Source: Nanobdellota archaeon
Lineage (GTDB): Archaea > Nanobdellota > Nanobdellia > Woesearchaeales > WJKV01
Length of the DNA stretch: 64,000 bases
Assembly (NCBI GenBank): GCA_023133595.1
Contig: JAGLWF010000006.1
Coordinates: forward strand, 10,074 to 74,073
Reading direction: 5' to 3'
The position numbers were made by a program, and so were the translations under genes. Of this stretch, positions 8,171-53,967 are shown in pieces (positions within the stretch are counted from its first letter, which is position 1; the number at the start of each line of letters is the position of its first letter). The notes beneath the pieces were generated by a model that saw only the letters and a list, made by a program, of their open reading frames with translations, was not told the origin of the DNA and made no database searches.

Positions 8171-8281
8171 CTCGCGTCCTTCCTCTTATTTTATATAGAA
8201 AAGAGCATTATTATTTATAAATCTATCTGCAGAAGAAGATTTTTAGTAAAGTATTTAAATGTTCACGGGTTGCATAATAAG

Positions 8282-9187: not shown

Positions 9188-9281
9188 TTCTTTATAAATA
9201 AGCATAACTACTTCTATGTCATAAAACCAAGAGAACCTTTAAATACTTAATCTGCTTACCTAAACTGCAAACCCACGAAAA

Positions 9282-9770: not shown

Positions 9771-9772
9771 AA

Positions 9773-11029: not shown

Positions 11030-11083
11030 TTCTTAAAAAAAAGAATGGAAAGGTTAGAAAGAATCTGAAATATAGCCGATGTT

Positions 11084-11416: not shown

Positions 11417-11511
11417 AATTAATACATAGATTTAGTAATATAAATATGTTTGCATGTGAAATATGATAAGAAAATATCAGATTATTAAAAAAAAAGAGAA
11501 ATAAAAAGAAA

Positions 11512-12918: not shown

Positions 12919-12941
12919 TTTATATTCCTCCTAAAAGTGAT

Positions 12942-15900
12942 TTACCTTCCCCCGAATCCTTTTCTGCCTTCCTGTTGTCTTTTTTTGAATTCTTCCCATT
13001 GTTTCCTACGGAAATCAGTATAATTTTGTTCTCTTTCTTTCTGCATCTGCATCATCCTTCGTCTTCGTTCTGCTTCTGCATGTTGTCTCATATCTTTCTG
13101 ATACTTCTTCCATGCGTTCTTCTTGTCTCTCTGTGCTCGAGCCTGCGGATTGTTTCCTGCGAACATGTAGACCAGCATGATAACAACCAGTAAAGCTCCA
13201 ATGATGATCAGCATGACCAATACAGACTTTGTATTGCTGTCAACATCTTTCTCTGTTGTGATCATCGGCTGTTTTCCAGAGTCAATGATCTGCACATCAA
13301 CTGGTGACGGCTGTGCAACAGGTGCTCCTGTGTATGTCTGGTATGACTTGTCCTCACAATCCTGTACACTTAACTGTACTGATCGTGATTCACTTAGCCG
13401 TACTCTGTCGTAGTATGTGCTGACTATAATATCATAAACTTTTGGTTCTGCATCTTCTGGAATGTTCAGTATGAAATTCTTTCGGATGTCAAAGTCTTCA
13501 TCGTACGGATCACTGTCCAGATCGAATGTGTACGATTCATCGATACCAAGCTCTTCGTTCACAACTGTGACTTTTGCATTGTCCTCGTCATCTTCTCCCA
13601 AGTTTGTCATTTCCAGTTCAAGGTTTGTCACGCGTGTGCATGAAACTCTGCTTGGTCTCAGGTTAAGTTCTGTAAGCTTGATATTGTGCTTGTCCTTCTC
13701 GATCTCCAGGAATGCACGTGTTGTGACTCTGTGCCTGAAACCGTGCTCGTCAATACCATCCACTTCGATCAGGATCTCGTACTCTTCTCCATCCTCAACT
13801 TCGTACGGCACTCTGAAGTCAAGACGTACATCTTCCTCATCGTCAGGATCAAGATCAAAGTCTCTGTCAGAATCAAAGTTCAGGTCATCGCCATCGTCAA
13901 TATCAAAGATTGTGACTTCCACTTCAATACCCTCAATCTCAAGACCGTTCCGTCTTGGGAAAGTGTTCTTGACCTCCATCTCAATCTCGATTCGGTCTCC
14001 TGGCTTGATACGCCTGACCTTATCTCTGCCATTAGGATCTATCCTTACCCTGTCACCTGCAATCTCAAGGTCGTCAATCTCTAATCTTGGGCCCATCTCA
14101 ACAGTGTTTCCAACATTGTATGTTGAGAAACCTGATACAGTGAATACAACTGTTCCGTGCGCTGTTGGTGCTGGTGAATAACTTACCAGTGTCGCTGATG
14201 CATAAGGTGCATTTACTTGCGAACGATCTGTTGTGAACGCAGTAGTATAATTGATAATTGGTGTCTCGTCATACGAGATTCCATAGAGTGTGATTGTCGC
14301 TGGAAGGTTCAGTGCTGAGAATTGTGTTGTGTCAATACCAGCAATGTTTGTATCTAGCACGACAAAACTGTCCAGATCAATCACATTTGTCAGGTCTACT
14401 GTTGCCGGACCAAAGTCGATCTTTGCGACATTAGGCACTTCGATTGTGACATTTGTCGCGTGTGATAATTCTGAATCCGGAACACTGATTATTGTCCCTC
14501 TGATTCTTCCGCTTCGTGAGGTTGGCCTGTTTGCTGTCTGTACTGTCCATGAGTATGTCACAACATTGCCCTGGTCGTTTCTTGCTTCGTATGAAACTGT
14601 GAAAGGACCGTTTCCTCTGTCAGCAGTATTAAGTGTGAATGTGTCTGCCTGGGATTCCTCGTTGCCATTTACAAACCATTTGTATGTGGTTGGAAGGTGT
14701 GTAGGATTGTTCAGTATGACACTGAATGTCTGGCTTGCTCCCTGTCTGATCAGGATATTGTTTGAGCTAGGCTGTGTTGACTGCAGTGAAAACTGAGGCT
14801 GTACATCAATGACATTCACTGTGATTGTCTGTGATGCATACTGGCCGCTGTTTGTGTCAGTCACTTTGAATGACAATGATTTTGTGCCGGCATCATTAAA
14901 GCCAGGCGAGTAAGTATAATTCTGGTCTGTTGATACTACTGTGCCATCCAGTGTCCACTGGTATTCTAGTGGATCATTGTCAAGATCACGCACAGTTGGT
15001 GTGAATGTCTGATTTTGTCCTTCATTGACATCAACAGTTGTACCTGCTGGTGTGAATGCTGTTATTTCTGGTGCAAAGTTAGGCGCGTCTGTCCTGAACG
15101 AGAATGTTGCAGACTTGTTTGTTGTGTGCACACCATCTGTTGCAATAACATACCAGTAGTATGTAGTATCATCTGTCAAGTTAACAGTAAGATTACTGTT
15201 TGTAGTATCAATATAATGTGGCGGATTCTGGTCTGTTCCAAAGTACACACTGTATGTTAATGGTGTATTGTCTGGATCATATGAACTCCACTGCAAGTTT
15301 ACCTGCATTGACTGGTCGCTGACAACTGCTGCGTCTGCAGGGGATATCAGTGTTGGGATCACAGGCGGATCATTGTCTGTGTTCAGTACTTCGATGCTCA
15401 TGTTTCGAGTATCTGTTGAAGTTCCGTCACTCACTGTGAATGCCAGTGTCTCATTACCAGCAAAGTTCTGTTTTGTGGTGATATTGATCATGTGTGTTGT
15501 TGGATTGATGGATACAAAGACATTTGGATTTGGTGATACATACCATGTCATTGCTGATGCCTGTGTATCATTATCAGAAACATAGTTATCCAGATCGATT
15601 GTGCTGTTGTATGAATCTTCGTTCATTACAACATTTGGGAATGCTGTGATGACAGGCGGATTATTGTAAGGCAGTGCCTGTACATAAAAACTGTTTGATA
15701 TTGCAGTTTCATTGATGCCGTCTGTTGCATTGATTGTCAGGTTGCTGATCCCACTGTATCCTGCTGCAGCTGAGATTGTAGCTGTCTGCGCAGCTGAATT
15801 AAAACTAACTGTGATGTTAGCATCTTTCTGCGGTGTGTCGTAGATCAGTGTTGTCAGATTATCTTCATCAATAAAGTATGTTGATAGGTCAATAACCTTG

Positions 15901-18470
15901 CTCTGTCCTGAAAAGAAAAATTGTGTTGGAATTGTTCCATTGAACAGGATTGGATCATTGATTGAAATTACATTAACTGTCAGTATACCTGTACCAATTC
16001 CACCGTTCTTATCCTCTACTGTGAATGTAACGTTTCTTTGTCCGTGCCAGTTATGGTCTGGCTTGAACAGGACGATTGCTTCTGTTGCATTATGGTTTGT
16101 CAGGTTGATCTCCATGTTCGGTACTTGTGTGATATTGATTGTCAGGTTCTCAAATAGGGTCTCATTATCACTGATGTACGGGAAGATATCAAGAGTTGTG
16201 TTTACATCCTCATTGAATGTCAGTGTTCCATTCAGTGGTGATTGTGAAAAGTTTACTTGCGGGATATCATTCTGTCCAGATACATTGATATCCAGATAAT
16301 CTACTGCTGTCCCACCCATTGTGTCAGATACATTGAATGTGACATTGAACATTCCATGGACATTTGGATCTGGTGCAATATATACCATCTTTGATGTCTG
16401 GTTGATTAATACATTAAGTCCTGTTGCTGGTGTCATCGATGTAACTGTGTAATTCAAGTTAGCATCAGGATCCTCAACATCAGATGCGTATGTGCTTAGA
16501 TTGATAGTTGTATTACCATCCTCAAAGATGTGCACACTATTATTGATAGGTGCGAATGAGAATAATGGGAAATCATTCACCTGTGTAACATTAATATTTA
16601 CTGTTCCATTGCCAACTCCACTGTTCAGGTCTGTTGCTGTCCAGTTGATATGCGCAAGACCTGTGAAGTTTGCATCAGGTGTGATTGTCGCATTAAATGT
16701 AGTGTGATTGTAAACTACAGTGATGCCTGGTGATGCTGTGTGTGCAATTGTAAGGTTTGCATCAGCGTCTCGATCATCTGTTACAGCGCTGCCTACGTCA
16801 AGAGTATAATTAGTATCTTCTGCAAATGTGACATTTGTGAAGCTGAATACAGGCGGATTGTTTGTATTGTTGACATTGACTGTCAATACACCATTGCCTG
16901 TCGCATTCTGTGTGTCCATTGCACTGAATGTTACATTTCTTTGTCCTGTGAAGTTTGCATCAGGCACGAAAGTTGCTACTTTTGTTGTCTGATTGATTGT
17001 TATATTGATATTAGCGACTGGTGTGAAACTTAATGTCAGGTTTGCCAGTGCTTCTTCCAGATCAGTTACATAGTTTCCTAAGTTCAATGTGCCATTTGTA
17101 TTTTCATTGAAAATTAATGTGTTGTTGATAGCACTGAAATTCCATCTAGGCGCGTCATTGACAGCAGAAACATTCAAAGTTATAGTATCAACACCAGTAC
17201 CACTATTAGAATCCTGAGCAATGAATGTTAGTACTCTTTGACCATTCCAATCAGCATCTGGTGTGATTGTTGCTGTGTCTGTTGCCTGATTGATTGTGAT
17301 TGTGACATTCGCTATATTTCCTGAAGTATAAGTTAGTGAAGAAGCTGCCTGTTCTACATCTGTTGTATATGTGCTTAGCACTATATTTGCGCTTCCATCT
17401 TCATTTATGTTAATAGGATTGATTGCAGATAAGTTCATGACAGGAACATCATTGACAGATGTTACATTCACTGTAATAGCTGCTGTACCGACAGCTGAGT
17501 TTGTGTCTGTGACTGTGAATATAACTGTCTGTGAACCAAACCAGTTAGCATTCGGTGTGATTGTAACTATGTCAGTAGTTTGATTGATTCCGACTGTGAT
17601 GCCGGTTGGAGTTCCCTGCACTCCGAATGTAAGATTTGCCACTGCGTCTTCAACGTCAGAAGCATAAGCTCCAATGTTGAATGTTGCAACAGTATCTTCA
17701 TTTGTTGTCAGGGTCGCATTGTTCATTGGTGTGAAGTTCAATGCAGGAGCGTCATTCACAGGATTGACAGTGACTGACAGTGTGCTTGAAGCGATTCCAC
17801 CGTTTGTATCAATACAGAAAAAGATGATATTTCTTGTGCCGAACCAGTCAGCATCAGGTGCGATTGTAGCAACCTTTGTGTTCTGGTTGATTGAAATAGT
17901 CAGATTGCTGGCAGGACTTGCTGAGTATGTTAGATTTACATTGGCATCTTCTGGATCTGATGCGTAAAGCCCTAGATTGATTGTTCCGTTTGTATCCTCA
18001 TTGAATGTTAAGGTTGTTGTGATTGAGAATGTAGGATTATTATTGTTCTGTGCACTTGGAGTTGGATTGTTGATTGTATTAACAGTTCCAGTTCCATCAG
18101 GAATTCTTCCAGCTGAGTTTGAAGGTGTAAGGCCTGTGTATGTAAAAGTGTTTGTTGGATTTCCAGATGTTGTGTTCACCAGTGTCAGGGTGTCTGCATT
18201 AACCAGATTGTAACCTAATTGCGCTTCTGTGAAAGTAGCGTATCTGCTGGTTGTGCTTAAAGTGCCTGATAGTGCGCTTCCCAGGTTTGTTGAAGAATTT
18301 ACTCTAAAATTTGCCAATGAAACAGAACTGGTTCCATTGTAGAAAAGTTCAACATAATCATTTGCAGAATTTGCAGTTACCTCATTAACAAAAACCTGTG
18401 CTGTTGCAGGCACTGCCAGTGCAACAATCAATACAATTAATAATAATATCTTCGCGAATGAATTCCCCAT
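12942..18470 (-). CDS. Giant cell-surface adhesin-like protein (lamin-tail-like domain, tandem cadherin/Ig-like repeats, C-terminal TM)
   Basis: ATG 18470 gives a signal peptide; VFVNEV...DYVELF LTD-like start; about 10 repeats delimited by VNDAP/NNPP motifs; PKD/Ig-like (LEYQWTLDG, YKWFVNG) and CARDB-like modules; TM then charged tail. Confidence 0.9.
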   Translation of the reverse strand: MGNSFAKILLLIVLIVALAVPATAQVFVNEVTANSANDYVELFYNGTSSVSLANFRVNSSTNLGSALSGTLSTTSRYATFTEAQLGYNLVNADTLTLVNTTSGNPTNTFTYTGLTPSNSAGRIPDGTGTVNTINNPTPSAQNNNNPTFSITTTLTFNEDTNGTINLGLYASDPEDANVNLTYSASPASNLTISINQNTKVATIAPDADWFGTRNIIFFCIDTNGGIASSTLSVTVNPVNDAPALNFTPMNNATLTTNEDTVATFNIGAYASDVEDAVANLTFGVQGTPTGITVGINQTTDIVTITPNANWFGSQTVIFTVTDTNSAVGTAAITVNVTSVNDVPVMNLSAINPININEDGSANIVLSTYTTDVEQAASSLTYTSGNIANVTITINQATDTATITPDADWNGQRVLTFIAQDSNSGTGVDTITLNVSAVNDAPRWNFSAINNTLIFNENTNGTLNLGNYVTDLEEALANLTLSFTPVANINITINQTTKVATFVPDANFTGQRNVTFSAMDTQNATGNGVLTVNVNNTNNPPVFSFTNVTFAEDTNYTLDVGSAVTDDRDADANLTIAHTASPGITVVYNHTTFNATITPDANFTGLAHINWTATDLNSGVGNGTVNINVTQVNDFPLFSFAPINNSVHIFEDGNTTINLSTYASDVEDPDANLNYTVTSMTPATGLNVLINQTSKMVYIAPDPNVHGMFNVTFNVSDTMGGTAVDYLDINVSGQNDIPQVNFSQSPLNGTLTFNEDVNTTLDIFPYISDNETLFENLTINITQVPNMEINLTNHNATEAIVLFKPDHNWHGQRNVTFTVEDKNGGIGTGILTVNVISINDPILFNGTIPTQFFFSGQSKVIDLSTYFIDEDNLTTLIYDTPQKDANITVSFNSAAQTATISAAAGYSGISNLTINATDGINETAISNSFYVQALPYNNPPVITAFPNVVMNEDSYNSTIDLDNYVSDNDTQASAMTWYVSPNPNVFVSINPTTHMINITTKQNFAGNETLAFTVSDGTSTDTRNMSIEVLNTDNDPPVIPTLISPADAAVVSDQSMQVNLQWSSYDPDNTPLTYSVYFGTDQNPPHYIDTTNSNLTVNLTDDTTYYWYVIATDGVHTTNKSATFSFRTDAPNFAPEITAFTPAGTTVDVNEGQNQTFTPTVRDLDNDPLEYQWTLDGTVVSTDQNYTYSPGFNDAGTKSLSFKVTDTNSGQYASQTITVNVIDVQPQFSLQSTQPSSNNILIRQGASQTFSVILNNPTHLPTTYKWFVNGNEESQADTFTLNTADRGNGPFTVSYEARNDQGNVVTYSWTVQTANRPTSRSGRIRGTIISVPDSELSHATNVTIEVPNVAKIDFGPATVDLTNVIDLDSFVVLDTNIAGIDTTQFSALNLPATITLYGISYDETPIINYTTAFTTDRSQVNAPYASATLVSYSPAPTAHGTVVFTVSGFSTYNVGNTVEMGPRLEIDDLEIAGDRVRIDPNGRDKVRRIKPGDRIEIEMEVKNTFPRRNGLEIEGIEVEVTIFDIDDGDDLNFDSDRDFDLDPDDEEDVRLDFRVPYEVEDGEEYEILIEVDGIDEHGFRHRVTTRAFLEIEKDKHNIKLTELNLRPSRVSCTRVTNLELEMTNLGEDDEDNAKVTVVNEELGIDESYTFDLDSDPYDEDFDIRKNFILNIPEDAEPKVYDIIVSTYYDRVRLSESRSVQLSVQDCEDKSYQTYTGAPVAQPSPVDVQIIDSGKQPMITTEKDVDSNTKSVLVMLIIIGALLVVIMLVYMFAGNNPQARAQRDKKNAWKKYQKDMRQHAEAERRRRMMQMQKEREQNYTDFRRKQWEEFKKRQQEGRKGFGGR

Positions 18471-18733
18471 TTTGTACGAAAACCTCCGTGTATACCCCTG
18501 ACTGGTTTCCAAAACCTATGATCATCATTCACCTAGAACCCCTTTTACCCTTTTTTGTATACAAAACGACCAGTTTATTTAAAGGTTTCGGTCATTCACC
18601 ATTGTGAGGTAATGATAACTGGAATGCCGGGTTCTTTATAAAGGTTTGGCAGAAATCGCCCTGGGTCAGTGATTACTATTATAATAGAGAGATATTAAAT
18701 ATTACCGATATATTCCTTTATTTCCGATCCGAC

Positions 18734-20026
18734 ATGAAAACATTGAAATTTCTAACATCATTATTCGCGCTAGGAGTCATGTTTGGGTGTGGTAACTCAG
18801 ATAGTGTCCTTCCTGAACCAATTCCAAAAGTCGCAAAACAACTTTCTCCAGAAGAGCAGAAGAAAAAAGAGGAAGAGGAAAGGAAGAAAGGAATCGAAGC
18901 AAAAATACGTGAAGTTGAAAAGGCAATAAATGATAAAGATTTGCTAGCTTGCTTCAAATATTCTACTGATAAAAAAAGACCTTCGTTTAGGGATATAGAA
19001 AAGATAGCTGAAAAATATGGAAGAAGCATAGACCAAAGATACCATCCAGATGACGAGTGGAATTCTATTCCTGATCTGGTGTTTATCGGGGATTTTCATG
19101 CAGTCTATGAAGACTCATCAGTAAACATTGTTTCTGATATGACAGAAAACGGAGATGTCTTCCTAGTGGAAGGCAATGATTGTGAAAATCTGCAGTTCAG
19201 GCTGGTTGATATTCTAAAAAAGGAATTGGCTGGGGAGAGAGAGATAACACCCTTTGAAATGTATTATGGAATTATTAACTCTGGAAATTATTATGTCCAT
19301 ATCAGAGGGATGGACGGGCCAGAAGAAAAATTCAATGAGATCCTGAAAGCTGCATATGCATATACAATAGCAACACGCTGCCTTAGAATGTCAATACCAG
19401 AGAATCCGACAGAAGATCAAACACGAAAGATTAAATTGTTAAAAGTGATCCTTCCTGAGTTCAAAAGAAAAGCAGAGCAACTTCAATATCTGCGTGAAAC
19501 AGATTATTTTGTGCCTAAGATTATAACAGCTGTTAAAAAAAAAAAGAAAAATCAAATAGTATTCGCTTGTGTAGGTTTTCTGCATCAAAAGAACAGGTCG
19601 ATACTTAGAAGATTAGAGGAAAATGAGGTCTCGTACATCTCTTTTGATATCCCCAGAAAAGAATATATTGAGAAAACAGCAGAGATGAAGGAGAGAGCAA
19701 TGAACTCGTTAAGCCAAAAACATGAAAATTCTAATGGAGAAGAGAAAAAGAGAATGGATAAAACCAGAAACCAGATCAGACAATTTTCTCCTCAAGAATT
19801 CAATGAAATTAATTATGTAATATGGAACTACAAAAATACTTTTGGGAATCTTGAACTCGATTATACAATCACACTTAGAGAGAAAGTGCCGAAAAGAGGA
19901 ACAAGAATCTCTTCTATCTTTGGAGGAAGACACTATGAGACAAAAGAAAGAAAGATCCGATTTCAGCTAAAACAAAAAGGAAAACATCCGACAGATCTCA
20001 AGATTCATGTGGATGAAATCAGATAA
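18734..20026 (+). CDS. Putative lipoprotein, possible ChaN/EreA/TraB-like fold
   Basis: FGCG lipobox-like leader; motifs VFIGDFH, FLVEG and VGFLH in the order typical of that superfamily (inference). Confidence 0.6.
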   Translation: MKTLKFLTSLFALGVMFGCGNSDSVLPEPIPKVAKQLSPEEQKKKEEEERKKGIEAKIREVEKAINDKDLLACFKYSTDKKRPSFRDIEKIAEKYGRSIDQRYHPDDEWNSIPDLVFIGDFHAVYEDSSVNIVSDMTENGDVFLVEGNDCENLQFRLVDILKKELAGEREITPFEMYYGIINSGNYYVHIRGMDGPEEKFNEILKAAYAYTIATRCLRMSIPENPTEDQTRKIKLLKVILPEFKRKAEQLQYLRETDYFVPKIITAVKKKKKNQIVFACVGFLHQKNRSILRRLEENEVSYISFDIPRKEYIEKTAEMKERAMNSLSQKHENSNGEEKKRMDKTRNQIRQFSPQEFNEINYVIWNYKNTFGNLELDYTITLREKVPKRGTRISSIFGGRHYETKERKIRFQLKQKGKHPTDLKIHVDEIR

Positions 20027-20077
20027 GTTTATATATCATATATTTCTTGTTTTGTAATAGAAAAAGAGGTGTTTGGA

Positions 20078-21073
20078 ATGATAAGAGTGGCTATCAATGG
20101 TTTTGGCCGTATAGGCAGGCAGATTCTAAGTGCAGGCATCAATGACAGGAGATTGAAATTTGTTGCTATCAATGATCGGTCTGATGCAAAAACACTGGCG
20201 CATATACTGAAGTATGATACTACACACGGCAAGTTTCCAGGAACAGTCGAAGTTGATGATGATTTTCTTGTTGTGAACGGAAAAAGGATGTATGTCTTCT
20301 CTGAAAAAGATCCAGTGAAACTTCCATGGAAAGATCTGAAGATAGATGTTGTTGCAGAATGCACTGGCATGTTTAGGCATAAAGAGGATTGCAACCGGCA
20401 TATTTTAGCTGGAGCAAAAAAAGTCCTGTTATCATCACCGCCAAAGGATCATTCTGATTATATGGTTATTTTTGGCGTGAATGAGAAAGGGTACGATAAA
20501 AGGAAGCATCATATTGTATCTAATGCTTCGTGCACAACAAACTGTGTTGTCCCGATCGCAAAAGTTTTAGATGAAAAATTCGGATTGGAGAAAGCGTTTC
20601 TGACAACAGTGCACGCATACACAAATTCACAACGATTGCTGGACGGGTCTGACAAGGATCTTCGACGGGCAAGAGCTGCGGGTGTGAACATAATACCAAC
20701 AACAACAGGCGCTGCAAAACAGATGGGGGAAGTGATCAAGACATTGAAGGGAAAGAGCGATGGAATCTCGATGCGCGTTCCTGTGATCGACGGCAGTGTC
20801 ATTGACCTGGTCTGCGTCACTAAAAGACCTGTCACTAAATCTGAACTGGACAAGGCTTTCAAAGATGCGAGCAGGAAAAGCATGCGGGGCATCATTGAAT
20901 ATTCAGAAGAACCTCTTGTCTCATCTGACATTATCCACAATCCGCATTCTGCGATCTACGATGCAAAAGCAACAATGGTATTGGACCAGAAATTCATCAA
21001 AGTGATTGCATGGTATGACAATGAATGGGGATTCTCGTGCAGAATGGTAGATATGCTGAAGATGATGTTCTAG
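20078..21073 (+). CDS. gap: Type I (bacterial-type) glyceraldehyde-3-phosphate dehydrogenase
   Basis: INGFGRIGR, catalytic SNASCTTNC, SMRVPVIDGS, WYDNEWGFS; GAGGTG RBS before ATG 20078. Confidence 0.97.
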   Translation: MIRVAINGFGRIGRQILSAGINDRRLKFVAINDRSDAKTLAHILKYDTTHGKFPGTVEVDDDFLVVNGKRMYVFSEKDPVKLPWKDLKIDVVAECTGMFRHKEDCNRHILAGAKKVLLSSPPKDHSDYMVIFGVNEKGYDKRKHHIVSNASCTTNCVVPIAKVLDEKFGLEKAFLTTVHAYTNSQRLLDGSDKDLRRARAAGVNIIPTTTGAAKQMGEVIKTLKGKSDGISMRVPVIDGSVIDLVCVTKRPVTKSELDKAFKDASRKSMRGIIEYSEEPLVSSDIIHNPHSAIYDAKATMVLDQKFIKVIAWYDNEWGFSCRMVDMLKMMF

Positions 21074-23532
21074 TCAGAGCCAAGCTCGAACTGGTCGCCA
21101 GACTCTAGTTCTGATAATCCTTCCATTGCGTCTATATCTAATTTTGCATTCACGACTTTCTTGAAGTCTGCAAGATCAGCAGATGTCGGATTTTTCTTAT
21201 AGAAAGTTCTGTAGATGTCAGCATAAAGCCCTTTCCCAGTGTATGTCACTGTCACGCTTTTTCCTTTTAGTAATGCGTCAACACGACTGTCCATCCCAGC
21301 AAGATGTTTTGCTACCCCTTCCATCCGCTTCTGGACATAATCTGATAGATCTTTCAGTACACGGAATTCTGTTCTTCCTGTCGCTGTGATTATCTTCAGG
21401 AATTTGGCATCTTTGCGGGTGACTGTGAACATCCTGTACTGTGTTCCGTATGCAACTTCCAGCTCACGTGCAAAACCTTTGTCAAAATGAGCAGCTACTT
21501 GTTTTGTGCTCAATCCTGTTCTCAGGTAAGGACCGTAATCATCAACAGGGCTGTTGAAGACAGCAAGTGCTTCATCACGTGCATTCTCGATCTGCGCGAT
21601 CTTTGCTTCGATCTCTTCATCCTTCTCTCTTCGCAGATCCTCCATCTTTGTCTCATAGTCTGCTGTGATTCTTGCTTTGTATTTTGCAAAACTTTCTCCA
21701 GCTTCTGCATTTTGTAGTTTCTCTTCAAGCTTTATGATCTCGAGCTGGGTAAGCTTATATTCTGCAGCCGCACTAACGAGCGCTTTTCCAGAGAGAATTA
21801 GTTCCTTTTGAGCATCTTTAATTGTCTTTTGTGCTATACTAAGAAGTTTATAATGATCTTTTTTCTCGGTTTCAAGTTTTTCTCTTAATTGATTTCGCTC
21901 TTTGATAGCTTTAACATAAATCTCGTGTTCTTTTTCTGTAATATATCTTCCTTTCTCTTTGTATCTCTTGATCTGTTCTTCTTTCTTCTCCAGATCAAGT
22001 TCTGTGTTTTCAAGCTGAGTCTTAGAATCTTTCAATTGTCCTTCCAGACCTGTGACCTTTGTTTTATATTCTTTGTTCTGGGCAAGATATTCAGCAGTTT
22101 TTGCCTCTGCTTTTGCAATATTTGTCCGTACAATTCTTACTACTCCATCCCGGGTATTAAGCTTGCTCTCCAGTTTTCGAATCTCTTCGGCAGTCTCTTC
22201 ATCAGGCTTTATGTTTGCAAGATCTTCCTTAAGCTTTGTTATCTCTCTCAAAGCGCTTTGGTAATCAATATTTCTTGCATTGAAATTTTTCTTTGCTTCT
22301 TCAAGATCTTTTAATACCTCTTTGTACTTTACATCATCAACATCAGCAACTGGTTTTACAGGCTGTGTCATTGCAAGATGAGCCAGACCAAGATCGTCAA
22401 GAACTTCTATTTCTGGAGCAATGTCTCCAGCATCTGTGAATATTCCAACAGCACCAACTGCAAGACCTAACAAGGTTGTTATTCCAAAGAACCATGTTCT
22501 TTTTCTTCCTGCTGTTTTCACAGCACGATATTTCTCATTCTCAAGCTGTTCGCAGTGTATCAATGCACGCTCCAGCTCGTTATTGACCTGTAAGTCTCCT
22601 TCTCTTAATTTTCCTTTGTGTAACTTATTCTTTCTGGTTCTCCAAATATTATTATCTGCCAAATACAGCATAACATACGATGCGTATTCAACAGACCTGG
22701 ATGTGTCTCTTTGATTACCAGGTTCTGTAAAGATCATAGGACCTGCATGTGTAGTTGGTATTGTTCCGTCAGGATAGCCCATCCCTCCTTTCTCAATAGA
22801 AAGTCTGTCTCGTCCGCCAGAGGAATAAGCTGGATCAACAACCAATTTCACTCTGTGTATAAGTCTGTCGTTCACAAACTCTTTCTGTTGTCTTGCCTCA
22901 GTAGGATGTTTGCCAGTAGAAGCGAATTTTACTTCATGTCTTTTTAGTATTCGAGGATTGGAGTTTTCTGGAATATCTTCATAAGTTATTCCAGGTTCAT
23001 CGTCAGCCAGGAAATCGCAGACAAGAACAGAAGCCGGCATTCTAGTGTGTACTATCTCTTGAGCAATCTGATAGAGATATTTTTCCCTGTCAGCACCGAC
23101 AGCAACAGCAATATCAGTTTTTTCAGTGCTCCCTATTGCTCTTGAGCCAATGTATAGTAAACGTGAAGGATTCCATTCTTTTCTCATATCAGAATTATCA
23201 AAGACAAGATGTACAGCATATTTTCTGCTGTGAAGTTCTGCCAGTCTTTGCACTTTTTCTCTTGCGGCTATAAGCTCTTTTCTTAGCTTTCTTTTTTCCC
23301 ACCACGAGGCCCTGCCAGCTTTTACACGATAGAAATCTTCTGCACGGTCAGGATGAAGAAAATTTGGACCGCACTCTGCAAGGATCAATGCGTCAAGTTT
23401 AGGTTGGGTTCTTTCAAGAGTTTCAAACAACTCTTCGATCGCACCAGTCATAGAAACAGCGATATATAATCTGCCAATAATATCTTGTCTTGCAGTGTTT
23501 CCCTTCAACCCGTTTCCATCTGGAAAATCCAT
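21070..23532 (-). CDS. Membrane-anchored coiled-coil protein, paralogue C of a tandem trio
   Basis: N-terminal alpha/beta domain, single TM (WFFGITTLLGLAVGAVGIF), long coiled coil, shared C-terminal domain ending ELESGDQFELG. Confidence 0.8.
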   Translation of the reverse strand: MDFPDGNGLKGNTARQDIIGRLYIAVSMTGAIEELFETLERTQPKLDALILAECGPNFLHPDRAEDFYRVKAGRASWWEKRKLRKELIAAREKVQRLAELHSRKYAVHLVFDNSDMRKEWNPSRLLYIGSRAIGSTEKTDIAVAVGADREKYLYQIAQEIVHTRMPASVLVCDFLADDEPGITYEDIPENSNPRILKRHEVKFASTGKHPTEARQQKEFVNDRLIHRVKLVVDPAYSSGGRDRLSIEKGGMGYPDGTIPTTHAGPMIFTEPGNQRDTSRSVEYASYVMLYLADNNIWRTRKNKLHKGKLREGDLQVNNELERALIHCEQLENEKYRAVKTAGRKRTWFFGITTLLGLAVGAVGIFTDAGDIAPEIEVLDDLGLAHLAMTQPVKPVADVDDVKYKEVLKDLEEAKKNFNARNIDYQSALREITKLKEDLANIKPDEETAEEIRKLESKLNTRDGVVRIVRTNIAKAEAKTAEYLAQNKEYKTKVTGLEGQLKDSKTQLENTELDLEKKEEQIKRYKEKGRYITEKEHEIYVKAIKERNQLREKLETEKKDHYKLLSIAQKTIKDAQKELILSGKALVSAAAEYKLTQLEIIKLEEKLQNAEAGESFAKYKARITADYETKMEDLRREKDEEIEAKIAQIENARDEALAVFNSPVDDYGPYLRTGLSTKQVAAHFDKGFARELEVAYGTQYRMFTVTRKDAKFLKIITATGRTEFRVLKDLSDYVQKRMEGVAKHLAGMDSRVDALLKGKSVTVTYTGKGLYADIYRTFYKKNPTSADLADFKKVVNAKLDIDAMEGLSELESGDQFELGSD

Positions 23533-23603
23533 ATTATAATACCCCCACATATACTACGATGTAGTGGTTAGAAGTAGCCAATATTTAAAGCTTTTGTGCT
23601 TAC

Positions 23604-24725
23604 TTAGTCTAATTCAAGTGTAAACTCATCTCCTGGCTCAAGATCGTAGACAAGTTCTTTCACTTGGTCTGGAGTCATCTTCTCATTCATGACTCTACGC
23701 ATGTCTGCAGCCTGCTCCTTTGTTGGACTCTTGTCATAAACAGATCTGTAAATATCAGCATAAAAATCAAGACCTGTGAACCTTATTGTCAAACCATTGT
23801 TTGCTTTGACATGCCCATCTAATTTCTTGTTCATTGCAAGATAATATTCTCTTGCTTTCTTCAATCCAGCTTCAAATGTTTCTGGAGGCACTGTGAGATG
23901 TACATAACCTGTTCTTGTTACTATTTTCAAAGCCTCTCCGATATGATAAATTGGCGGCTTGGGTTTTTTTGGCGGACCTTCTTCAGCAGGCATAACAACA
24001 AGACGGCAGTATGCTGAAGATGTATAGACAGTATAATCCACAGACGGTTCTATCAGCAATTCTAGCAATTCTGCATTTATCCGTTTTTTTGTTTCTGCAC
24101 CAAAGAATCTTTCAATATCTTCTTTAGCAATACCATTCCTGAAATACGGTCCAAGATTAGTAAAATTTCTTAGTCTCTCAAATTGGTCACTATTATAATC
24201 CATTCCAGTACAAATCCCTTTGAACATTTTCAGCAATTCTTCTAGAGATTTTACATCTTTTGAAAATTCGAATATCTCCCTGATTCTTGCAAGTGCTTCT
24301 TCTGAGATTGGTTTCTGGCTCCTTTTCCAATCTCTTAATTCTTTTTCTGCTTTTTTTCTGTCTTCTATTGCTTCCTGCTTGGCCATTGCGTCGTACAAAG
24401 CACAATAAAAGAAACTATGAGGATCTGCATCTTTTGGAATATGAGCTCTTATATCTCTAAGTTCACGTACTTCACCCTCTCTCCATCTTCGATAAGTTCC
24501 GTCTGGATCTCTTGTAAAACCATCATTAACTTCTACAAGTTCATAACCATCTTCACGATGCTCTCCCCTGTTTGTATGGAAATGCATTGTGCCAGTAACA
24601 GTGAGAAGAACAGCAAAGCCTGCTGTGACCGCGAGTGTGCCTCCGACTCCCCACAGGACATGTCTGGTTATATCATCGAAAATCGGTTCTTTCTCAGGCT
24701 TTTTTTCACGAAAATCATTCAACAT
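23604..24725 (-). CDS. Membrane-anchored protein, paralogue B of the trio
   Basis: ATG 24725 with AGGTGA RBS; TM near the N-terminus; C-terminal domain ending DLEPGDEFTLELD. Confidence 0.8.
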   Translation of the reverse strand: MLNDFREKKPEKEPIFDDITRHVLWGVGGTLAVTAGFAVLLTVTGTMHFHTNRGEHREDGYELVEVNDGFTRDPDGTYRRWREGEVRELRDIRAHIPKDADPHSFFYCALYDAMAKQEAIEDRKKAEKELRDWKRSQKPISEEALARIREIFEFSKDVKSLEELLKMFKGICTGMDYNSDQFERLRNFTNLGPYFRNGIAKEDIERFFGAETKKRINAELLELLIEPSVDYTVYTSSAYCRLVVMPAEEGPPKKPKPPIYHIGEALKIVTRTGYVHLTVPPETFEAGLKKAREYYLAMNKKLDGHVKANNGLTIRFTGLDFYADIYRSVYDKSPTKEQAADMRRVMNEKMTPDQVKELVYDLEPGDEFTLELD

Positions 24726-24741
24726 ATTCACCTTTCTCACT

Positions 24742-27243
24742 TTATTCCAACTCAAGTGTAAACTCATCTCCTGGTTCAAGATCATAGACAAGTTCTTTCA
24801 CTTGGTCTGGAGTCATCTTTTCATTCATGACTCTTCGCATGTCTGCTGCTTGCTCTTTATTCGGACTTTTTGCATACACAGCTTTGTAGACATCAGCATA
24901 GAAATCAAGACCTGTGAATCTCATTGTCAAGCCTTTGTTCTTCTTGACATGGTCATCTAATTTCTTGTCCATTGCAAGAAGATGCGCTCTTGCTTTCTGC
25001 ACAGCTTCTTTGAAAAGATTTGGAGTTTCTAGGACATATAATTCTCCGTTTGTTGTGACAAGCCTTATCCTATCTCCTTTAACAGTCTGGAAAACTCTAT
25101 AATCCATAGATGCATAGTGCCGAAGTGCCACTTCAACATCTGCCTCGCAGAACCTGTAAAGCATGTCTTTGCTTATACCGTTCTTGAAGTATGCTCCCAG
25201 ATCAGATGTAGACGAGATATTTGCTGCCAGGTTCTGCAATGCTTTTTCTGCTTTCTTCTGGGCTTTTTCATATTCACTCATTGCCTTTCTTCTAGCGTCC
25301 AAAGTTCCATCCATGATATCAATTGCAGTTATTGCATTCTCTATTGTTCCAAGTTCAGCAGTTAGATTAGCTCCAGAATAATCTTCGATCTTTCTGAAAA
25401 GAGTTTGCTTCTGTCCTTCCAGTTTCTCGATCCTTGCTTCAAGAGCTTTGTAATCTTCTGGTTGCAATTCTCTTGCTGTTTTAATATCATTCTTTGCGTT
25501 GTTCAAATCTTCTTTAGCACTCTGCAACTTAGTCTCTAAGTTTTTGTAATCAACAAGAAGTTTGTTCATCCTATCAAAAGCATCTGTGATGAATTTCACA
25601 GCTTCTTCTCTAGGTAGATCTGTTACTGGAATTAAAACTTTTAATTTATAATGCGGCTCACCAAGACCTGGAAGGAATATTGTACTTTCAATATTTCCAT
25701 CCTTGCCTTTTTTATAAGCAACTCTTACTTCTCCATCAAATGATTCTGTAGATTCTGTATCTGGCGCAAGACCAGCCAGAGGACCTAAATTCACTAAGAG
25801 GGCAACCAGTCCACCGCCGATAAGAGCTCCTGCAATTACACCGATACCCCCAGATGTTAGACGTATTCTCCCCTTTTTTGCAGAAAGATAATCTGAAGAA
25901 CCGGATTCATCCGATGACGCTCGCAGTGTTGAGATTGTTGTTGATCTTCTTTTACGACGTGGAGGTTCGTCTCCATCAAACATTGGCTCGTCCCTTGTTT
26001 GTGCTTCTTCATCAGCAGGCCCAGGTCCAAATTCTTTATCCAATGCTTTGTCAAAAGCTTCACCAGCTTCATCAAGTCCACTTTCATCAACAGTATCATC
26101 GCCTGCTTCTGCTTCAAAATCACCTTCAGTCTCAGCTTCACTTTTACCTTTTAAAGCACTGCCTCTTTCTGTTGCCTGAGCAAAAATATCAAACGGTTTT
26201 TCAGAAGGTTTACTTTTTTCTTCCGTTATCGCTCCAACTTTTCTTCCAACTGATTCTTCTGGAGTGCCTGCTGGAGCTGGTTCTGTAATCTCTGTCTGTT
26301 CTGTTGGTGGTGGAGGTGGTGCTTCTCCACTTTCTTCACCAAGATCTTCACTATCATCACCAAGATCAGCTAACCCTTTTGAAGCAGATTCTTCTTGAGT
26401 CACATCTTCTGATGGTGCTTTTTTTGTAGCAGGTTCTGGCCATGCAAGCGGTGGTGGTGCTTCTTCTGGCAAAGGCTCCACTGCTGGAATTTCTTCCTCT
26501 CCTGGTTCTCCTTCTCTCTGGTCTGCAGGTGACCTTCCAAATGGTAGAGTTCCACCTTTTTCTGTTCCAGGTTCTCCTTTTACTGATGGAAAATAATCAG
26601 AATCACTCAGAGGATCTCTTGGCGGACCATCAACTTCTTCTGATTCTCCTTCAACTCTAGTTCGCTTTGCTTCTTCTTCTGTATCACCTGCACCTTCTTC
26701 TCGACGTTGTGGACTAATATCAAAATCTTTCTCTGTAAGAACTGGAAGCGATGGACCAACTTCTGTCGGGCCTGTCAATGGTGGTGGAGTTTCTTGTTGC
26801 GGAGGAGCGTCTAATATTATCTCTGCGCTGGTATCTTCACTTGGTGGTTGAACTATTGGTAATGGATGATGTTGATGCCCTGCACCCTCACCGCCAGAAG
26901 TAAAATGTTTCTTTTTTGTTGTTTGGTCTCGTGGTAAATCTTCGAAACGGTCAGTTGCTCCTGGAGGTTTTGGTGGTTTGCCTTCTTCAAGAGCTCTAAT
27001 CTGATCAGGTGTTTCTGCTCTTTTACCTAGTGTTATTTTTGATGCGTCAGCACCAGGAAACATCCCTTCCAATGCCTCTATATCCTCAGTTCTAGGTTTT
27101 TCCTCATCTACAGCTTCTGGAACAGGAGTTTCTGGACCTGCGGATCTGTCCCATTCCTCGCTTAGAAGTCCGCCTGGTTCATCTGCTGGTTTTGCTTCTT
27201 TCTTTTTTTTAGGACCGTCTGCTGGTTTTTTTGGATCTGTCAT
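24742..27243 (-). CDS. Membrane-anchored protein with long acidic/Pro-rich N-terminus, paralogue A of the trio
   Basis: About 450-aa low-complexity E/P/G/A region, TM, coiled coil, C-terminal domain ending DLEPGDEFTLELE. Confidence 0.8.
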   Translation of the reverse strand: MTDPKKPADGPKKKKEAKPADEPGGLLSEEWDRSAGPETPVPEAVDEEKPRTEDIEALEGMFPGADASKITLGKRAETPDQIRALEEGKPPKPPGATDRFEDLPRDQTTKKKHFTSGGEGAGHQHHPLPIVQPPSEDTSAEIILDAPPQQETPPPLTGPTEVGPSLPVLTEKDFDISPQRREEGAGDTEEEAKRTRVEGESEEVDGPPRDPLSDSDYFPSVKGEPGTEKGGTLPFGRSPADQREGEPGEEEIPAVEPLPEEAPPPLAWPEPATKKAPSEDVTQEESASKGLADLGDDSEDLGEESGEAPPPPPTEQTEITEPAPAGTPEESVGRKVGAITEEKSKPSEKPFDIFAQATERGSALKGKSEAETEGDFEAEAGDDTVDESGLDEAGEAFDKALDKEFGPGPADEEAQTRDEPMFDGDEPPRRKRRSTTISTLRASSDESGSSDYLSAKKGRIRLTSGGIGVIAGALIGGGLVALLVNLGPLAGLAPDTESTESFDGEVRVAYKKGKDGNIESTIFLPGLGEPHYKLKVLIPVTDLPREEAVKFITDAFDRMNKLLVDYKNLETKLQSAKEDLNNAKNDIKTARELQPEDYKALEARIEKLEGQKQTLFRKIEDYSGANLTAELGTIENAITAIDIMDGTLDARRKAMSEYEKAQKKAEKALQNLAANISSTSDLGAYFKNGISKDMLYRFCEADVEVALRHYASMDYRVFQTVKGDRIRLVTTNGELYVLETPNLFKEAVQKARAHLLAMDKKLDDHVKKNKGLTMRFTGLDFYADVYKAVYAKSPNKEQAADMRRVMNEKMTPDQVKELVYDLEPGDEFTLELE

Positions 27244-27320: not shown

Positions 27321-27752
27321 TCAGTAGTGAAGAAATTTGCCCCTATTTGCACAGTTCTTTATAAACACGCCTTTTTTATTAACAACCTTTCCAAGGCCCA
27401 GATTCTCGTCATGCCTGTTCTGGACCAGTACAAAACCTTCTTTCACACTGCATTTTTTTACAGATTCTTTGAAGACATCTCTTCCGCATAGAAACAGCCA
27501 CTCTGTCTTGTCGTCGACAAATGCTTTTCTGTCAGAATATTCAGATAATAGTTCCAGCAGGGCAAATGATGGGGTGAAATCCTTCTTCTCAATGCCTAAA
27601 AAAACACCAGCACCTTCTGGTTCCAGGTTCATATTCCTCTTGATCTTATCCCTTAATTCCAGTAAGCTCTTGTCAGCGAGGTAATGGTTCCTTCTTATCT
27701 TTACAGTATCAAATTTCTTATCGCAAAATTGAGAAATGAATTCTTGGATCAT
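27321..27752 (-). CDS. NIP7-like ribosome biogenesis protein (PUA-associated)
   Basis: GAGVFLG, FTPSFALLELL, EWLFLCGRDVF and VLVQNRHDENLGLG match the archaeal NIP7/UPF0113-like pattern as I recall it. Confidence 0.7.
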   Translation of the reverse strand: MIQEFISQFCDKKFDTVKIRRNHYLADKSLLELRDKIKRNMNLEPEGAGVFLGIEKKDFTPSFALLELLSEYSDRKAFVDDKTEWLFLCGRDVFKESVKKCSVKEGFVLVQNRHDENLGLGKVVNKKGVFIKNCANRGKFLHY

Positions 27753-27753
27753 C

Positions 27754-29034
27754 TTACACCTGCACTGTCTTTTCAATGTTCAGTTCTTGAGGCTTTATTT
27801 TGATTTTCAAATGGATGTAAAGCAATGATTTCACTTTATCTGTCACACCATTGACCAAATGCTCGATATCAGTGTCTAATTCAGTTATTTTCTTGATATC
27901 TGTGTCAATTGTTCCATTCAGCCTGTTGATATTGTTCTGGATAGCGTCCAGATCCATCTCTAACTGTGTCAGTTCCTCGATTATTCTGTATTCGTCTAAT
28001 TTTTCCTGCGTATCTGAGACTAATGCTCTTAATTTAGAATAAAGATCGTACAGTTCCTGCAATTTTTCTTTTGTTATTGCTGCCAGCTTGTCTGAGATTT
28101 TCTTTTTCTCTTTCTTCTCAAAGCCTAGCTTGTCAATATTGTTTTCTACACCGCCTATTGCAGAGATTATCCTTAATCTTGAATCGCCCATAAGACCCTT
28201 TATCGGATCATCCAGGTATTTTTCTATCAATTTCTCGTGGTCGACAGTGATTCTCTTGTACTTCCTGAAAGCACGCGCCAATGGAGCGAACATCTCTATT
28301 ATCCCTTTGTCCAGTTTCTCTGCCTGTGATTTTTGCTCTTCTGCCAATTCTTTCAATATCATGAGATCTGCATAAGCCTTGCTCTCTTTTCTTTTTGCTA
28401 TCCTCTCTTTTGTCTTTGTGTATTCTTTTTGTTTTGCGTTTATTTCGTTCTGGGTGTCGTTTATCTTGTTTTTCAGTGATTCCTGCTCCTTCTGTTTCTC
28501 GTGGATCTTTGCAATGTCCATGTTTATGTTCTCTATCTCCATTAAATCTTCCTTCAGTGTAGTTCCAACAATCTGTCTTGACAGCCTGTCTAAAGCACCG
28601 ACTGTCTGTGCAAGATCTTTTGTCTCATTCGCAAAGAATTCCTGCAATATGACATAACTTTTCTGGGTCTTCTTTGCAAAATCTTCAAGAACTTTCTGGA
28701 ACTTGTCTGGAAAATCTTTTCCAAACTTTGGTATGTTGTCAATAAGCATTCTTACTTGCTTTATGTAATTGTTTCTGTTGCCGACCATGTAGGCAAGCAT
28801 CCTTGGCGGCAAATTTTTATTGTGCAGTTCAGCTTCTTCCAGTGCAACGATCTTATCTGCCGCTTCTTTGATCTTTGTGTCGAACTGGTCGTACAATGCA
28901 GAGATTGTCTGGTCTCTTGCAGAGAACTTGTGCTTTGTCTTGCCGTCGAACCATGATTCTAACTGTTCCAAAGGTATCTCGACTAATTCACCTTTTGCCT
29001 TAAACATCCCTTTGAGAGCATCTAAAAATCCCAT
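27754..29034 (-). CDS. Hypothetical coiled-coil protein
   Basis: 426-aa, strongly helical and charged; stop lies 1 nt from the NIP7-like start. Confidence 0.8.
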   Translation of the reverse strand: MGFLDALKGMFKAKGELVEIPLEQLESWFDGKTKHKFSARDQTISALYDQFDTKIKEAADKIVALEEAELHNKNLPPRMLAYMVGNRNNYIKQVRMLIDNIPKFGKDFPDKFQKVLEDFAKKTQKSYVILQEFFANETKDLAQTVGALDRLSRQIVGTTLKEDLMEIENINMDIAKIHEKQKEQESLKNKINDTQNEINAKQKEYTKTKERIAKRKESKAYADLMILKELAEEQKSQAEKLDKGIIEMFAPLARAFRKYKRITVDHEKLIEKYLDDPIKGLMGDSRLRIISAIGGVENNIDKLGFEKKEKKKISDKLAAITKEKLQELYDLYSKLRALVSDTQEKLDEYRIIEELTQLEMDLDAIQNNINRLNGTIDTDIKKITELDTDIEHLVNGVTDKVKSLLYIHLKIKIKPQELNIEKTVQV

Positions 29035-29159: not shown

Positions 29160-29555
29160 TCAGTCTTCGAATATTACCACACCATCCACAATCCTAAATT
29201 TAAATCTTGGTGATACGTACAGTGATGGTACTGGTTCTGGTACATGAAATACTGGTCTTTCTGCAATAAATACCGGTTCTGGATTTGGTATATAATGTAC
29301 TGGTCTTTCTGCAATAAACACCGGTTCTGGATTTGGTATATAATGTACTGGTCTTTCTGCAATAAATACTGGTTCTGGAACTGGCAGAAACGGTTTTGTT
29401 GTTTCATATCCAACATTCAGACGTTCTGGATGATGCTCCACGCATCTGTCTCTTCCAACCAAAAAATCGTTTTGATAATCTCGCATCTGCATTGGCAGAG
29501 ATGTTTGCCCCATGATGTCATTTGCCATATTATGTCCGCTGAAAAAATTGTTCAT
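29160..29555 (-). CDS. Small orphan protein with Pro-rich tandem repeat
   Basis: GGAGGT RBS; starts MNNFFSGHNMANDIMG; three PVFIAERPV units. Confidence 0.6.
   Translation of the reverse strand: MNNFFSGHNMANDIMGQTSLPMQMRDYQNDFLVGRDRCVEHHPERLNVGYETTKPFLPVPEPVFIAERPVHYIPNPEPVFIAERPVHYIPNPEPVFIAERPVFHVPEPVPSLYVSPRFKFRIVDGVVIFED
29232..29380. repeat. Coding 48-bp tandem repeat x3 (PVFIAERPVHYIPNPE)
   Basis: ACTGGTCTTTCTGCAATAAA at 29251, 29299 and 29347 (period 48). Confidence 0.9.
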
Positions 29556-29561
29556 TTTTGT

Positions 29562-29960
29562 TTACCTCCGTCTTAAATGCTTGTATTCGTCACGCATTCT
29601 TTTTGCTACTTCAAAAGGGACCCCACCACATCCAGATTCAAGGAGTTCTCTTGCTAATTCTGCATCTTCATCAGAATACTTTAATTTTCTTTCTCTTCTA
29701 CTCTGTTCTGCCTGGTATTTCCACATTGCTTTTGTAGATTCATCAATAACTGGTTCCCATGCTCGGATTTCATGTGTGATCAGAGGCGCTGGTTCTACAT
29801 ATGGGATGTATACTCTTTCTTCTGCAATAAGTCCTCGATGCATTGGAAGACTGTGAGAGGGGCATGTCCTTGCCAAATAATTGTCTGTCTTGTGCAATGG
29901 GCTCATATGTCCCAACACTTCATTTGCCATGTTATGTCCACTAAAAAAGTTCATTTTCAT
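29562..29960 (-). CDS. Small orphan protein sharing its N-terminus with 29160-29555
   Basis: GAGGT RBS; starts MKMNFFSGHNMANEVLG. Confidence 0.6.
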   Translation of the reverse strand: MKMNFFSGHNMANEVLGHMSPLHKTDNYLARTCPSHSLPMHRGLIAEERVYIPYVEPAPLITHEIRAWEPVIDESTKAMWKYQAEQSRRERKLKYSDEDAELARELLESGCGGVPFEVAKRMRDEYKHLRRR

Positions 29961-52167: not shown

Positions 52168-52177
52168 AGGAGATATT

Positions 52178-52657: not shown

Positions 52658-52659
52658 TC

Positions 52660-53965: not shown

Positions 53966-53967
53966 TT

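Follow-up and report, generated by a model that had tools for sequence, protein, structure and literature searches.

Three neighbouring minus-strand genes, termed A, B, and C in their order of transcription, were studied in a 64,000-nucleotide stretch of DNA from a Nanobdellota archaeon (the window; contig JAGLWF010000006.1, positions 10,074 to 74,073 of the forward strand, numbered here from its first letter). These three long open reading frames (ORFs) lie within 21070-27243 (Table 1), and a reading of the bare letters, the original prediction, had described them as tandem membrane proteins sharing an unrecognized C-terminal domain with a LysM-like end. Pairwise comparison of the products bore out the homology, with E-values of roughly 1e-15 to 1e-51, and the gene positions first proposed proved correct. 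The C-terminal regions of A and B share 44% identity over 228 amino acids (E 1.7e-51), those of A and C 27% over 280 amino acids (E 1.2e-20), and those of B and C 34% over 111 amino acids (E 5.9e-15), while the N-terminal regions show no significant similarity in the same pairwise comparisons. Exactly one hydrophobic segment, taken as the transmembrane segment, is present in each protein. The picture of a modular paralogous family with unrelated N-terminal modules, each member crossing the membrane once, was thus upheld, and the motif string originally written for the C-terminal domain, here called the head, agrees with the alignment of the heads.

The start sites of two of the three genes required attention. 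The full ORF of gene B (23604-24791) begins at a program-assigned TTG codon that overlaps the 3' end of gene A, and real use of this codon is unlikely. The ATG at 24725 has the sequence GGTGA 6 nucleotides upstream and yields a product of 373 amino acids, as in the public gene calls; a further alternative, GTG at 24740, lies just past the stop codon of gene A and would give 378 amino acids. For gene C, the ATG at 23550 would encode 826 amino acids, and the public call uses the second ATG at 23532. The 3' end of gene C overlaps that of the convergent gene for glyceraldehyde-3-phosphate dehydrogenase (GAPDH) by 4 nucleotides. The product of gene A is identical in sequence to P0001, the top match of the head-profile search described below.

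The regions preceding the transmembrane segments differ in kind. No Pfam match was obtained for residues 1-461 of protein A, which are rich in acidic residues, proline, and glycine. Within the coding region of this acidic low-complexity tail lies a 21-bp tandem repeat of 2.1 copies (26324-26367), consistent with expansion of the tail by repeats. The N-terminal domain of protein C, which has no Pfam or PDB relative, belongs to no described family; it shows 34% identity to two homologues, P0007 and P0011, and is common also to P0012, a fragment of one closer orthologue of C that was recovered by searching with this domain. In protein B, only 21 residues precede the membrane, and its head carries a 24-amino-acid insertion.

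The extreme C termini of A and B were said to be identical over the last 35 residues. The identity in fact spans 37 residues without a break (positions -38 to -2) and stops short of the last one, which is E in A and D in B. The accompanying claim that the DNA differs mainly at synonymous sites was borne out, as the 37 codons contain nine differences, all of them synonymous. Nei-Gojobori estimates for the last 38 codons are 0.60 synonymous substitutions per synonymous site (dS) and 0.011 nonsynonymous substitutions per nonsynonymous site (dN), a ratio (omega) of about 0.02, and the remainder of the head has a dS of 0.90 and a dN of 0.43. A recent gene conversion behind the identical tail is ruled out by the dS of about 0.6 in this segment. 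By these codon counts, the tail is kept constant by purifying selection. An old gene conversion followed by purifying selection is an alternative compatible with the data, and the somewhat lower dS in the 3' half of the head would fit it.

The head domain and the LysM question

The structure of the head was predicted with AlphaFold2 from an alignment of eight family members (see below), giving a model with a mean predicted local distance difference test score (pLDDT) of 90.1 and a predicted template modelling score of 0.83; all five models reached a pLDDT of at least 87. This model replaced that of an earlier run with three sequences, for which the pLDDT was 70 and the Foldseek search uninformative. 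The N-terminal half is predicted to open with a short hairpin, which two short helices (16-30) follow; next come a meander of three strands (39-63) and a helix of 26 residues (68-93). In the C-terminal half, a strand (96-99) is followed by three helices (105-114, 120-133, and 136-144) and a last strand (151-154). A heptad pattern runs along the long helix in both A (745-775) and C (720-756), and this helix may, if the model is right, continue the oligomer of the stalk. Eight residues are invariant in the alignment (G7, Y9, G13, G57, G102, D108, V129, and L142), and the most conserved motif is F/Y-T/S-G-x-D-x-Y-A-D-I-Y-R-x-V-Y.

The claim that the domain is unrecognized held throughout. No match on the head was found in Pfam, NCBIfam, or PHROGs, where only sub-threshold coiled-coil noise in the stalks was detected, and no PDB family was matched. 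A Foldseek search of the head model against 350,542 PDB chains returned nothing significant (best E 0.39); the matches were judged from the best 50 of 769 weak ones, without inspection of coordinates. A search of the viral structures in BFVD likewise gave nothing significant, with a best E of 0.068 and TM-scores below 0.3. In a PDB sequence-profile search, OtDUB (E 0.007-0.017, on the long helix) and MICU1 (E 0.18-0.6) were rejected as chance-level matches. Weak NCBIfam and Pfam matches to SMC, Rad50, ASRP, TPR_MLP1_2, and laminin models were put down to coiled-coil composition, as they lay far below the cut-offs, and in protein A the TPR_MLP1_2, Laminin_I, and SMC noise was confined to residues 547-678. 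A literature search found no paper describing the family. It is established, then, that the head represents an undescribed family without a solved relative. A new fold is not established, the absence of a match being one between a predicted model and the chains of PDB and BFVD.

The best-scoring structural match was to the cryptic polo box of Plk4 (6n45), which also has a three-stranded antiparallel meander followed by a helix, as in head residues ~39-93. The match covers 62 columns, under half of the head, at an E-value of 0.39, a probability of 0.38, and a TM-score of 0.22, and a relation to polo boxes was not accepted, the match being read as a chance resemblance of a substructure and not significant.

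The end of the head had been likened to LysM or another glycan-binding fold. In this account, the terminal part would be a module with affinity for peptidoglycan, pseudomurein, chitin, or the glycans of an S-layer. The resemblance that prompted it is real at the level of pattern: both are small modules in which terminal beta strands flank helices, both would occupy an extracellular position at the tip of a modular protein, and in both a hydrophobic end strand follows a glycine-containing turn. The ending L-E-P-G-D-x-F-x-L recalls the L-x-x-G-Q-x-L-x-I-P of LysM, though superficially, the conserved aromatic residues Y9, F/Y100, Y106, Y110, and Y114 could stack on sugars, and an outside location is plausible. 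However, neither Pfam, hhalign, nor Foldseek supported the likeness to LysM. None of the eight heads matched the LysM family (PF01476) in a Pfam scan at E<=10, and nor did the three full proteins at E<=1. When the family profile was compared by hhalign with a reference alignment of five LysM repeats taken from PDB chains 8i2e and 4uz2, the probability was 0.2% and the E-value 0.33 over 12 aligned columns, which fall in the N-terminal part of the head and leave the terminal segment unaligned. In the AlphaFold and Foldseek check that had been proposed for this claim, no LysM chain was present among the best 50 PDB matches.

The differences are also structural. The terminal subdomain is predicted to have the order beta-alpha-alpha-alpha-beta, with three helices rather than the two of LysM and ~59 residues rather than ~45, and it is embedded in an integral alpha/beta domain of 157 amino acids that adds the three-stranded meander and the 26-residue helix. 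Comparison of the head consensus (F-T-G-x-D-x-Y-A-D-I-Y-R ... D-M-R-R-V-V ... L-E-P-G-D-E) with LysM leaves only the Gly-Asp pair and the terminal hydrophobic strand alike, and the LysM hallmarks, GDTL near the first strand and a conserved Asn after helix 2, are absent from the head alignment; the motif residues compared were G-D-T/S-L after strand 1, Asn after helix 2, and G-Q-x-L in strand 2. The run of strand, helices, and strand, together with the glycine turn and the hydrophobic end strand, explains the impression of a LysM resemblance. As far as profiles and the predicted model can tell, the head is not a LysM domain; LysM as a homology is largely refuted, a LysM-like glycan-binding ending is now very unlikely, and the label should not be carried forward for this family.

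Topology, stalks, and distribution of the family

The orientation of the proteins in the membrane was judged from the residues flanking the single hydrophobic segment. When 15-residue flanks were counted in eight members, the numbers of lysine and arginine residues before and after the segment were 4/1, 4/2, 6/0, 4/0, 5/1, 4/1, 2/1, and 6/2. The N-side is thus the more positive in all eight and the C-side is acidic; in protein A, the N-side flank KKGRIR contributes to four lysine and arginine residues, and the C-side has one such residue and five acidic ones. In A, C, P0004, P0005, and P0008, 220-530 residues precede the membrane segment without a signal peptide. Long N-terminal regions that lack a signal peptide are not translocated during Sec/YidC insertion and remain cytoplasmic. 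The positive N-flanks and the long signal-peptide-free N-terminal regions together point to an N-in/C-out (type II) topology, in which the stalk and head would lie outside the cell. The outside location originally proposed for the domain agrees, in all eight members, with the positive-inside rule.

The segment between membrane and head was scored for heptads with a simple home-made score. A helical stalk had been proposed for all three proteins; this stood for A and C, whose heptad segments are given in Table 1, and is weakly supported for B, in which the same score detected no heptad stalk. The stalks of A and C are predicted coiled coils and would probably be oligomeric. That the stalks differ in length was confirmed across the family, where they form two classes, one of 133-182 amino acids (A-type, including B and P0004) and one of 294-324 amino acids (C-type). 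Common to the C-type stalks are a LAPE..LD.LGL motif next to the membrane and, at mid-stalk, a conserved K-G-x-Y-I-T break, which in C separates the two heptad segments. The long stalk of C could either be extended, to about 40 nm, or folded back at this break.

In an exhaustive HMMER search of 1.84 billion cluster representatives with a profile of the three heads, eight proteins passed the cut-off of E<=1e-3. Each of them scored at E<=1e-19, and three are the window's own A, B, and C. Those relatives that have names are annotated as hypothetical proteins and come from metagenome-assembled genomes of Candidatus Woesearchaeota or Nanoarchaeota, in line with the DPANN setting first suggested. 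A pattern scan of 185,579 GTDB species genomes found a C-type gene in one, Woesearchaeota isolate FT6_98, and degenerate patterns for the A-type head confirmed no relatives in the GTDB genomes, JGI metagenomes, or IMG/VR; such scans miss members with differing motifs, and the genome of P0008 was caught only by the patterns for the C-type N terminus. The head family is either very narrow or evolving too fast to be traced further. P0007, P0011, and P0012 are C-type orthologues that share the N-terminal domain of C, and the Woesearchaeota genome KY335 carries both types, as P0008 and P0011.

The arrangement of the locus is conserved in a divergent relative. At the loci L002/L005, the order is a 426-amino-acid coiled-coil protein, a Nip7-like protein, the A-type P0005 (584 amino acids), the C-type P0007 (822 amino acids), GAPDH on the opposite strand, and a 428-amino-acid protein, which is the order of the window minus B. 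The pair of A-type and C-type genes between Nip7 and GAPDH in so divergent a relative indicates that the pair is ancestral. As B is absent from between these genes, it is lineage-specific, a duplicate of the 3' part of A without the acidic tail and the heptad stalk. The content of guanine plus cytosine (GC) is 0.47-0.51 in L002/L005 compared with 0.38 in the window. Between the window and this relative, GAPDH is 79% identical, Nip7 73%, and the 426-amino-acid protein 67%, whereas A and C are only 32% and 34% identical, and their heads 40%. Such rapid divergence beside slow housekeeping genes would be usual for interaction proteins that are exposed.

A fourth paralogue, P0004 (846 amino acids; MCK4670680.1, Nanoarchaeota archaeon), is encoded at L003 10001-12541, on scaffold_55 of the same metagenome. 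It sits alone between the genes for aIF5B and Trm1, with another N-terminal module and a D/E/G-rich tract. The GC content of its locus (0.382) equals that of the window, and the tetranucleotide correlation between the two is 0.964, compared with 0.857 between the halves of the window. Given the common metagenome, the equal GC content, and this correlation, P0004 probably belongs to the same genome.

Neighbouring genes and other features of the window

The archaeal genes within the window include a Nip7-like UPF0113/PUA gene and Nre. No tRNA or Rfam elements were found in the 64,000 nucleotides. The Nip7-like gene and the overlapping gene for the 426-amino-acid coiled-coil protein, found in the same order in L005, are possibly cotranscribed. 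The 426-amino-acid protein is far better conserved than A or C; its NCBIfam matches, to models of alpha-xenorhabdolysin/MakE-type alpha-helical toxins, were sub-threshold (E 9e-4 and 0.14). Beyond it lie two small paralogous ORFs that share the N-terminal sequence NFFSGHNMAN and have no family match. One of them, 29160-29555, contains a 48-bp tandem repeat (29250-29379, 2.7 copies, 96% matches) that encodes repeats of PEPVFIAERPVHYIPN.

On the other side of the three genes, the GAPDH is of the bacterial/eukaryotic-type class I (Gp_dh_N plus Gp_dh_C), here in a DPANN archaeon, and has 79% identity to the copy in L002. Next to it, a 430-amino-acid protein with a lipoprotein-like N terminus (MKTLKFLTSLFALGVMFGC) has no family match; a protein of 43% identity adjoins GAPDH in L002 also. 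A cluster of large predicted surface proteins occupies 3817-18512, comprising an FG-GAP protein, a NosD/beta-helix protein, and a protein with Big_9 and cadherin-like domains, which are candidate adhesins of the same cell. The presence of predicted surface proteins near A, B, and C fits an envelope-related neighbourhood.

Elsewhere in the window, two Fic/DOC-domain proteins are encoded, the second with a DeoR-type helix-turn-helix. The GC content dips to 0.28-0.32 around 52-56 kb (52000-56000), compared with 0.38 for the window, and this low value suggests that the stretch may be a foreign or defence-type island.

Table 1. Positions of the genes, their predicted segments, and neighbouring features in the window
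Feature	Position	Strand	Length or residues	Description
Gene A	24742-27243	-	833 aa	Long acidic/Pro-rich N-terminal region, one transmembrane segment, predicted coiled-coil stalk, conserved head
A, N-terminal region	25861-27243	-	residues 1-461	E/D/P/G-rich low-complexity region, predicted cytoplasmic; no signal peptide; precedes the sole transmembrane segment
A, transmembrane segment	25762-25860	-	residues 462-494	Uncharged stretch; Kyte-Doolittle maximum 2.33
A, stalk	25216-25761	-	residues 495-676, 182 aa	Heptad pattern at 546-682
A, head	24745-25215	-	residues 677-833, 157 aa	Undescribed alpha/beta domain (predicted)
Gene B	23604-24725	-	373 aa from ATG 24725	21-aa N-terminal tail, transmembrane segment, 133-aa non-heptad linker, head
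B, transmembrane segment	24570-24662	-	residues 22-52 of the 373-aa form	
B, head	23607-24170	-	residues 186-373	
Gene C	21070-23532	-	820 aa from ATG 23532	N-terminal globular domain of ~345 aa, transmembrane segment, stalk of ~294 aa, head
C, N-terminal domain	22498-23532	-	residues 1-345	Conserved domain, predicted cytoplasmic; motifs ECGPN, ILISDFLFG, NAGP
C, transmembrane segment	22435-22497	-	residues 346-366	N-flank with 6 K/R; C-flank with 0 K/R and 6 D/E
C, stalk	21553-22434	-	residues 367-660	Juxtamembrane LAPE..LD.LGL motif; heptad segments 445-523 and 551-625
C, head	21073-21552	-	residues 661-820	
Nip7-like UPF0113/PUA gene	27321-27776	-		Pfam UPF0113
Coiled-coil protein	27754-29034	-	426 aa	Overlaps the start of the Nip7-like gene by 23 nt; no Pfam family
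Small ORF	29160-29555	-		Paralogue of the next
Small ORF	29562-29960	-		
GAPDH	20069-21073	+		
Protein with lipoprotein-like N terminus	18734-20026	+	430 aa	
FG-GAP protein	3817-6651		944 aa	
NosD/beta-helix protein	6644-8170		508 aa	
Big_9/cadherin protein	12942-18512		1856 aa	Nine Big_9 and six cadherin-like domains, PKD, LTD
Fic/DOC-domain protein	44367-45311	+		
Fic/DOC-domain protein	54963-56324	+		With DeoR-type helix-turn-helix

Possible roles of the family at the cell surface

A life in attachment to other cells is the way in which DPANN archaea are generally believed to exist. To our knowledge, few molecules that make or sense this contact are known, and most predicted surface proteins of these organisms are unannotated. 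The explanation we put forward, at roughly even confidence, is that A, B, and C are paralogous, Woesearchaeota-restricted type II surface proteins in which a head on a stalk outside the cell binds a common partner. The variable N-terminal modules would stay in the cytoplasm, as an acidic disordered tail of 460 amino acids in A, 21 residues in B, and a globular domain of 345 amino acids in C. An oligomeric stalk would hold the head outside. There, the heads of all paralogues would bind one shared external partner, which may belong to the cell's own envelope or be the surface of another cell, a host or partner; each paralogue would thereby couple this partner, through the membrane, to its own cytoplasmic module. 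Contact would most likely be made by the terminal beta-3-helix-beta portion of the head, since this portion has stayed frozen from A to B (omega about 0.02) and the remainder has diverged.

The architecture is of a familiar kind: the protein is anchored in type II fashion and carries its C-terminal head on a coiled-coil neck, as do C-type lectin receptors (such as langerin/DC-SIGN), SUN-domain proteins, and paramyxovirus attachment proteins. The analogy with these receptors is one of layout: a cytoplasmic N-module is followed by a signal-anchor helix, a coiled-coil stalk, and a globular head, and paralogues have the head in common while their stalk lengths and cytoplasmic tails vary. No part is homologous, however, and the archaeal head has no fold match in PDB or BFVD. 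FtsN, DamX, and DedD are bitopic divisome proteins with a C-terminal SPOR domain, and they too combine a variable cytoplasmic N terminus, one transmembrane segment, a linker, and a small C-terminal alpha/beta domain outside. The head differs from SPOR, which has the order beta-alpha-beta-beta-alpha-beta, in its predicted order of secondary structure, and Pfam gave no SPOR match. We know of no murein in the source organism.

Several observations weigh against the proposal of an exposed, partner-binding head. The topology call has a heuristic, the positive-inside rule, as its sole basis, and the predicted ectodomains, with 0-2 N-glycosylation sequons and a richness in charged residues, would also fit a cytoplasmic coiled coil. 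The linker of B lacks the heptads expected of a stalk. The Nip7 and GAPDH neighbours are unrelated housekeeping genes and give no functional hint. As to expression and location, the locus is present in a single public run, a DNA run labelled cold seep metagenome, and none of the RNA-seq runs searched for the locus holds it.

One alternative departs little from the proposal. The proteins could be structural spacers or anchors that fix the distance of an S-layer or outer sheath, in the manner of SlaB or tetrabrachion stalks, with the head docked in the lattice. The anatomy would be the same, the two conserved classes of stalk length suggest a ruler function, and with its heptad-patterned long helix the head itself could continue the oligomer. 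SlaB (Sulfolobales) and tetrabrachion (Staphylothermus) have an N-terminal signal peptide and a C-terminal anchor. The likeness to them lies in coiled-coil stalks that are anchored in an archaeal membrane and reach tens of nanometres beyond it; in the family of A, B, and C, however, large cytoplasmic modules come first and the N-proximal anchor comes after them, so that the orientation is opposite to that of SlaB, and no sequence similarity was detected. Structural anchors also tend to occur in large numbers and to be better conserved, whereas A and C outpace their neighbours in divergence, and no S-layer gene was identified in the window. A spacer role overlaps with the binding of a common partner, differing only in the nature of that partner, and we consider it unlikely, though worth keeping in mind.

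A more elaborate version of the surface-receptor proposal would make the A-type and C-type proteins a two-component surface apparatus of Woesearchaeota. A shared head of new fold would recognize the cell that serves as host or partner, or an envelope polymer of that cell, the C stalk would fold back at the KGxYIT break so that the heads of A and C meet, and a signal would pass to the 345-amino-acid domain of C and the acidic tail of A, the whole serving as a contact receptor in DPANN episymbiosis. We regard this version as decidedly speculative and improbable.

It could instead be that the location is inverted and that stalk and head are cytoplasmic, forming a membrane-tethered coiled-coil scaffold similar to EzrA-like or SMC-like tethers, with the head as a protein-interaction module. 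In their K/E-rich composition the stalks resemble cytoplasmic coiled coils, they match SMC, Rad50, and ASRP models weakly, sequons in the C-terminal part are few (0-2), and Nip7, GAPDH, and the 426-amino-acid coiled-coil protein nearby are cytoplasmic. However, the SMC-type matches reach only 16-26 bits against curated cut-offs of 300-567 and reflect composition only, and the positive-inside bias points the other way in all eight members. The inverted arrangement would, moreover, have the N-terminal regions of A, P0004, P0005, and C, 220-530 residues long, exported without a signal peptide, which is mechanistically implausible from what is established about insertion. For these reasons it seems quite unlikely. 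Attachment or fusion proteins of an integrated virus or mobile element are scarcely credible here: type II topology, a coiled-coil stalk, and a C-terminal head do resemble some viral attachment proteins, and the stalks gave weak PHROG matches, but these are coiled-coil noise in the stalks only (E 5e-5 to 9e-3), neither a relative in IMG/VR nor a structural match in BFVD was found, and the locus is syntenic between housekeeping genes across lineages whose GC contents are 0.38 and 0.47-0.51.

DPANN genomes commonly encode hypothetical membrane proteins that are specific to one lineage, and if the head is not a binding head, the family would be one of many such hypothetical families. In either case, the head is a compact, confidently foldable domain of ~157 amino acids, present in three to four paralogues per genome, and so a target for structural and binding work. 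If it is true that the head binds a host or the envelope, the family would provide a new domain family and a handle on cell-cell contact in Woesearchaeota.

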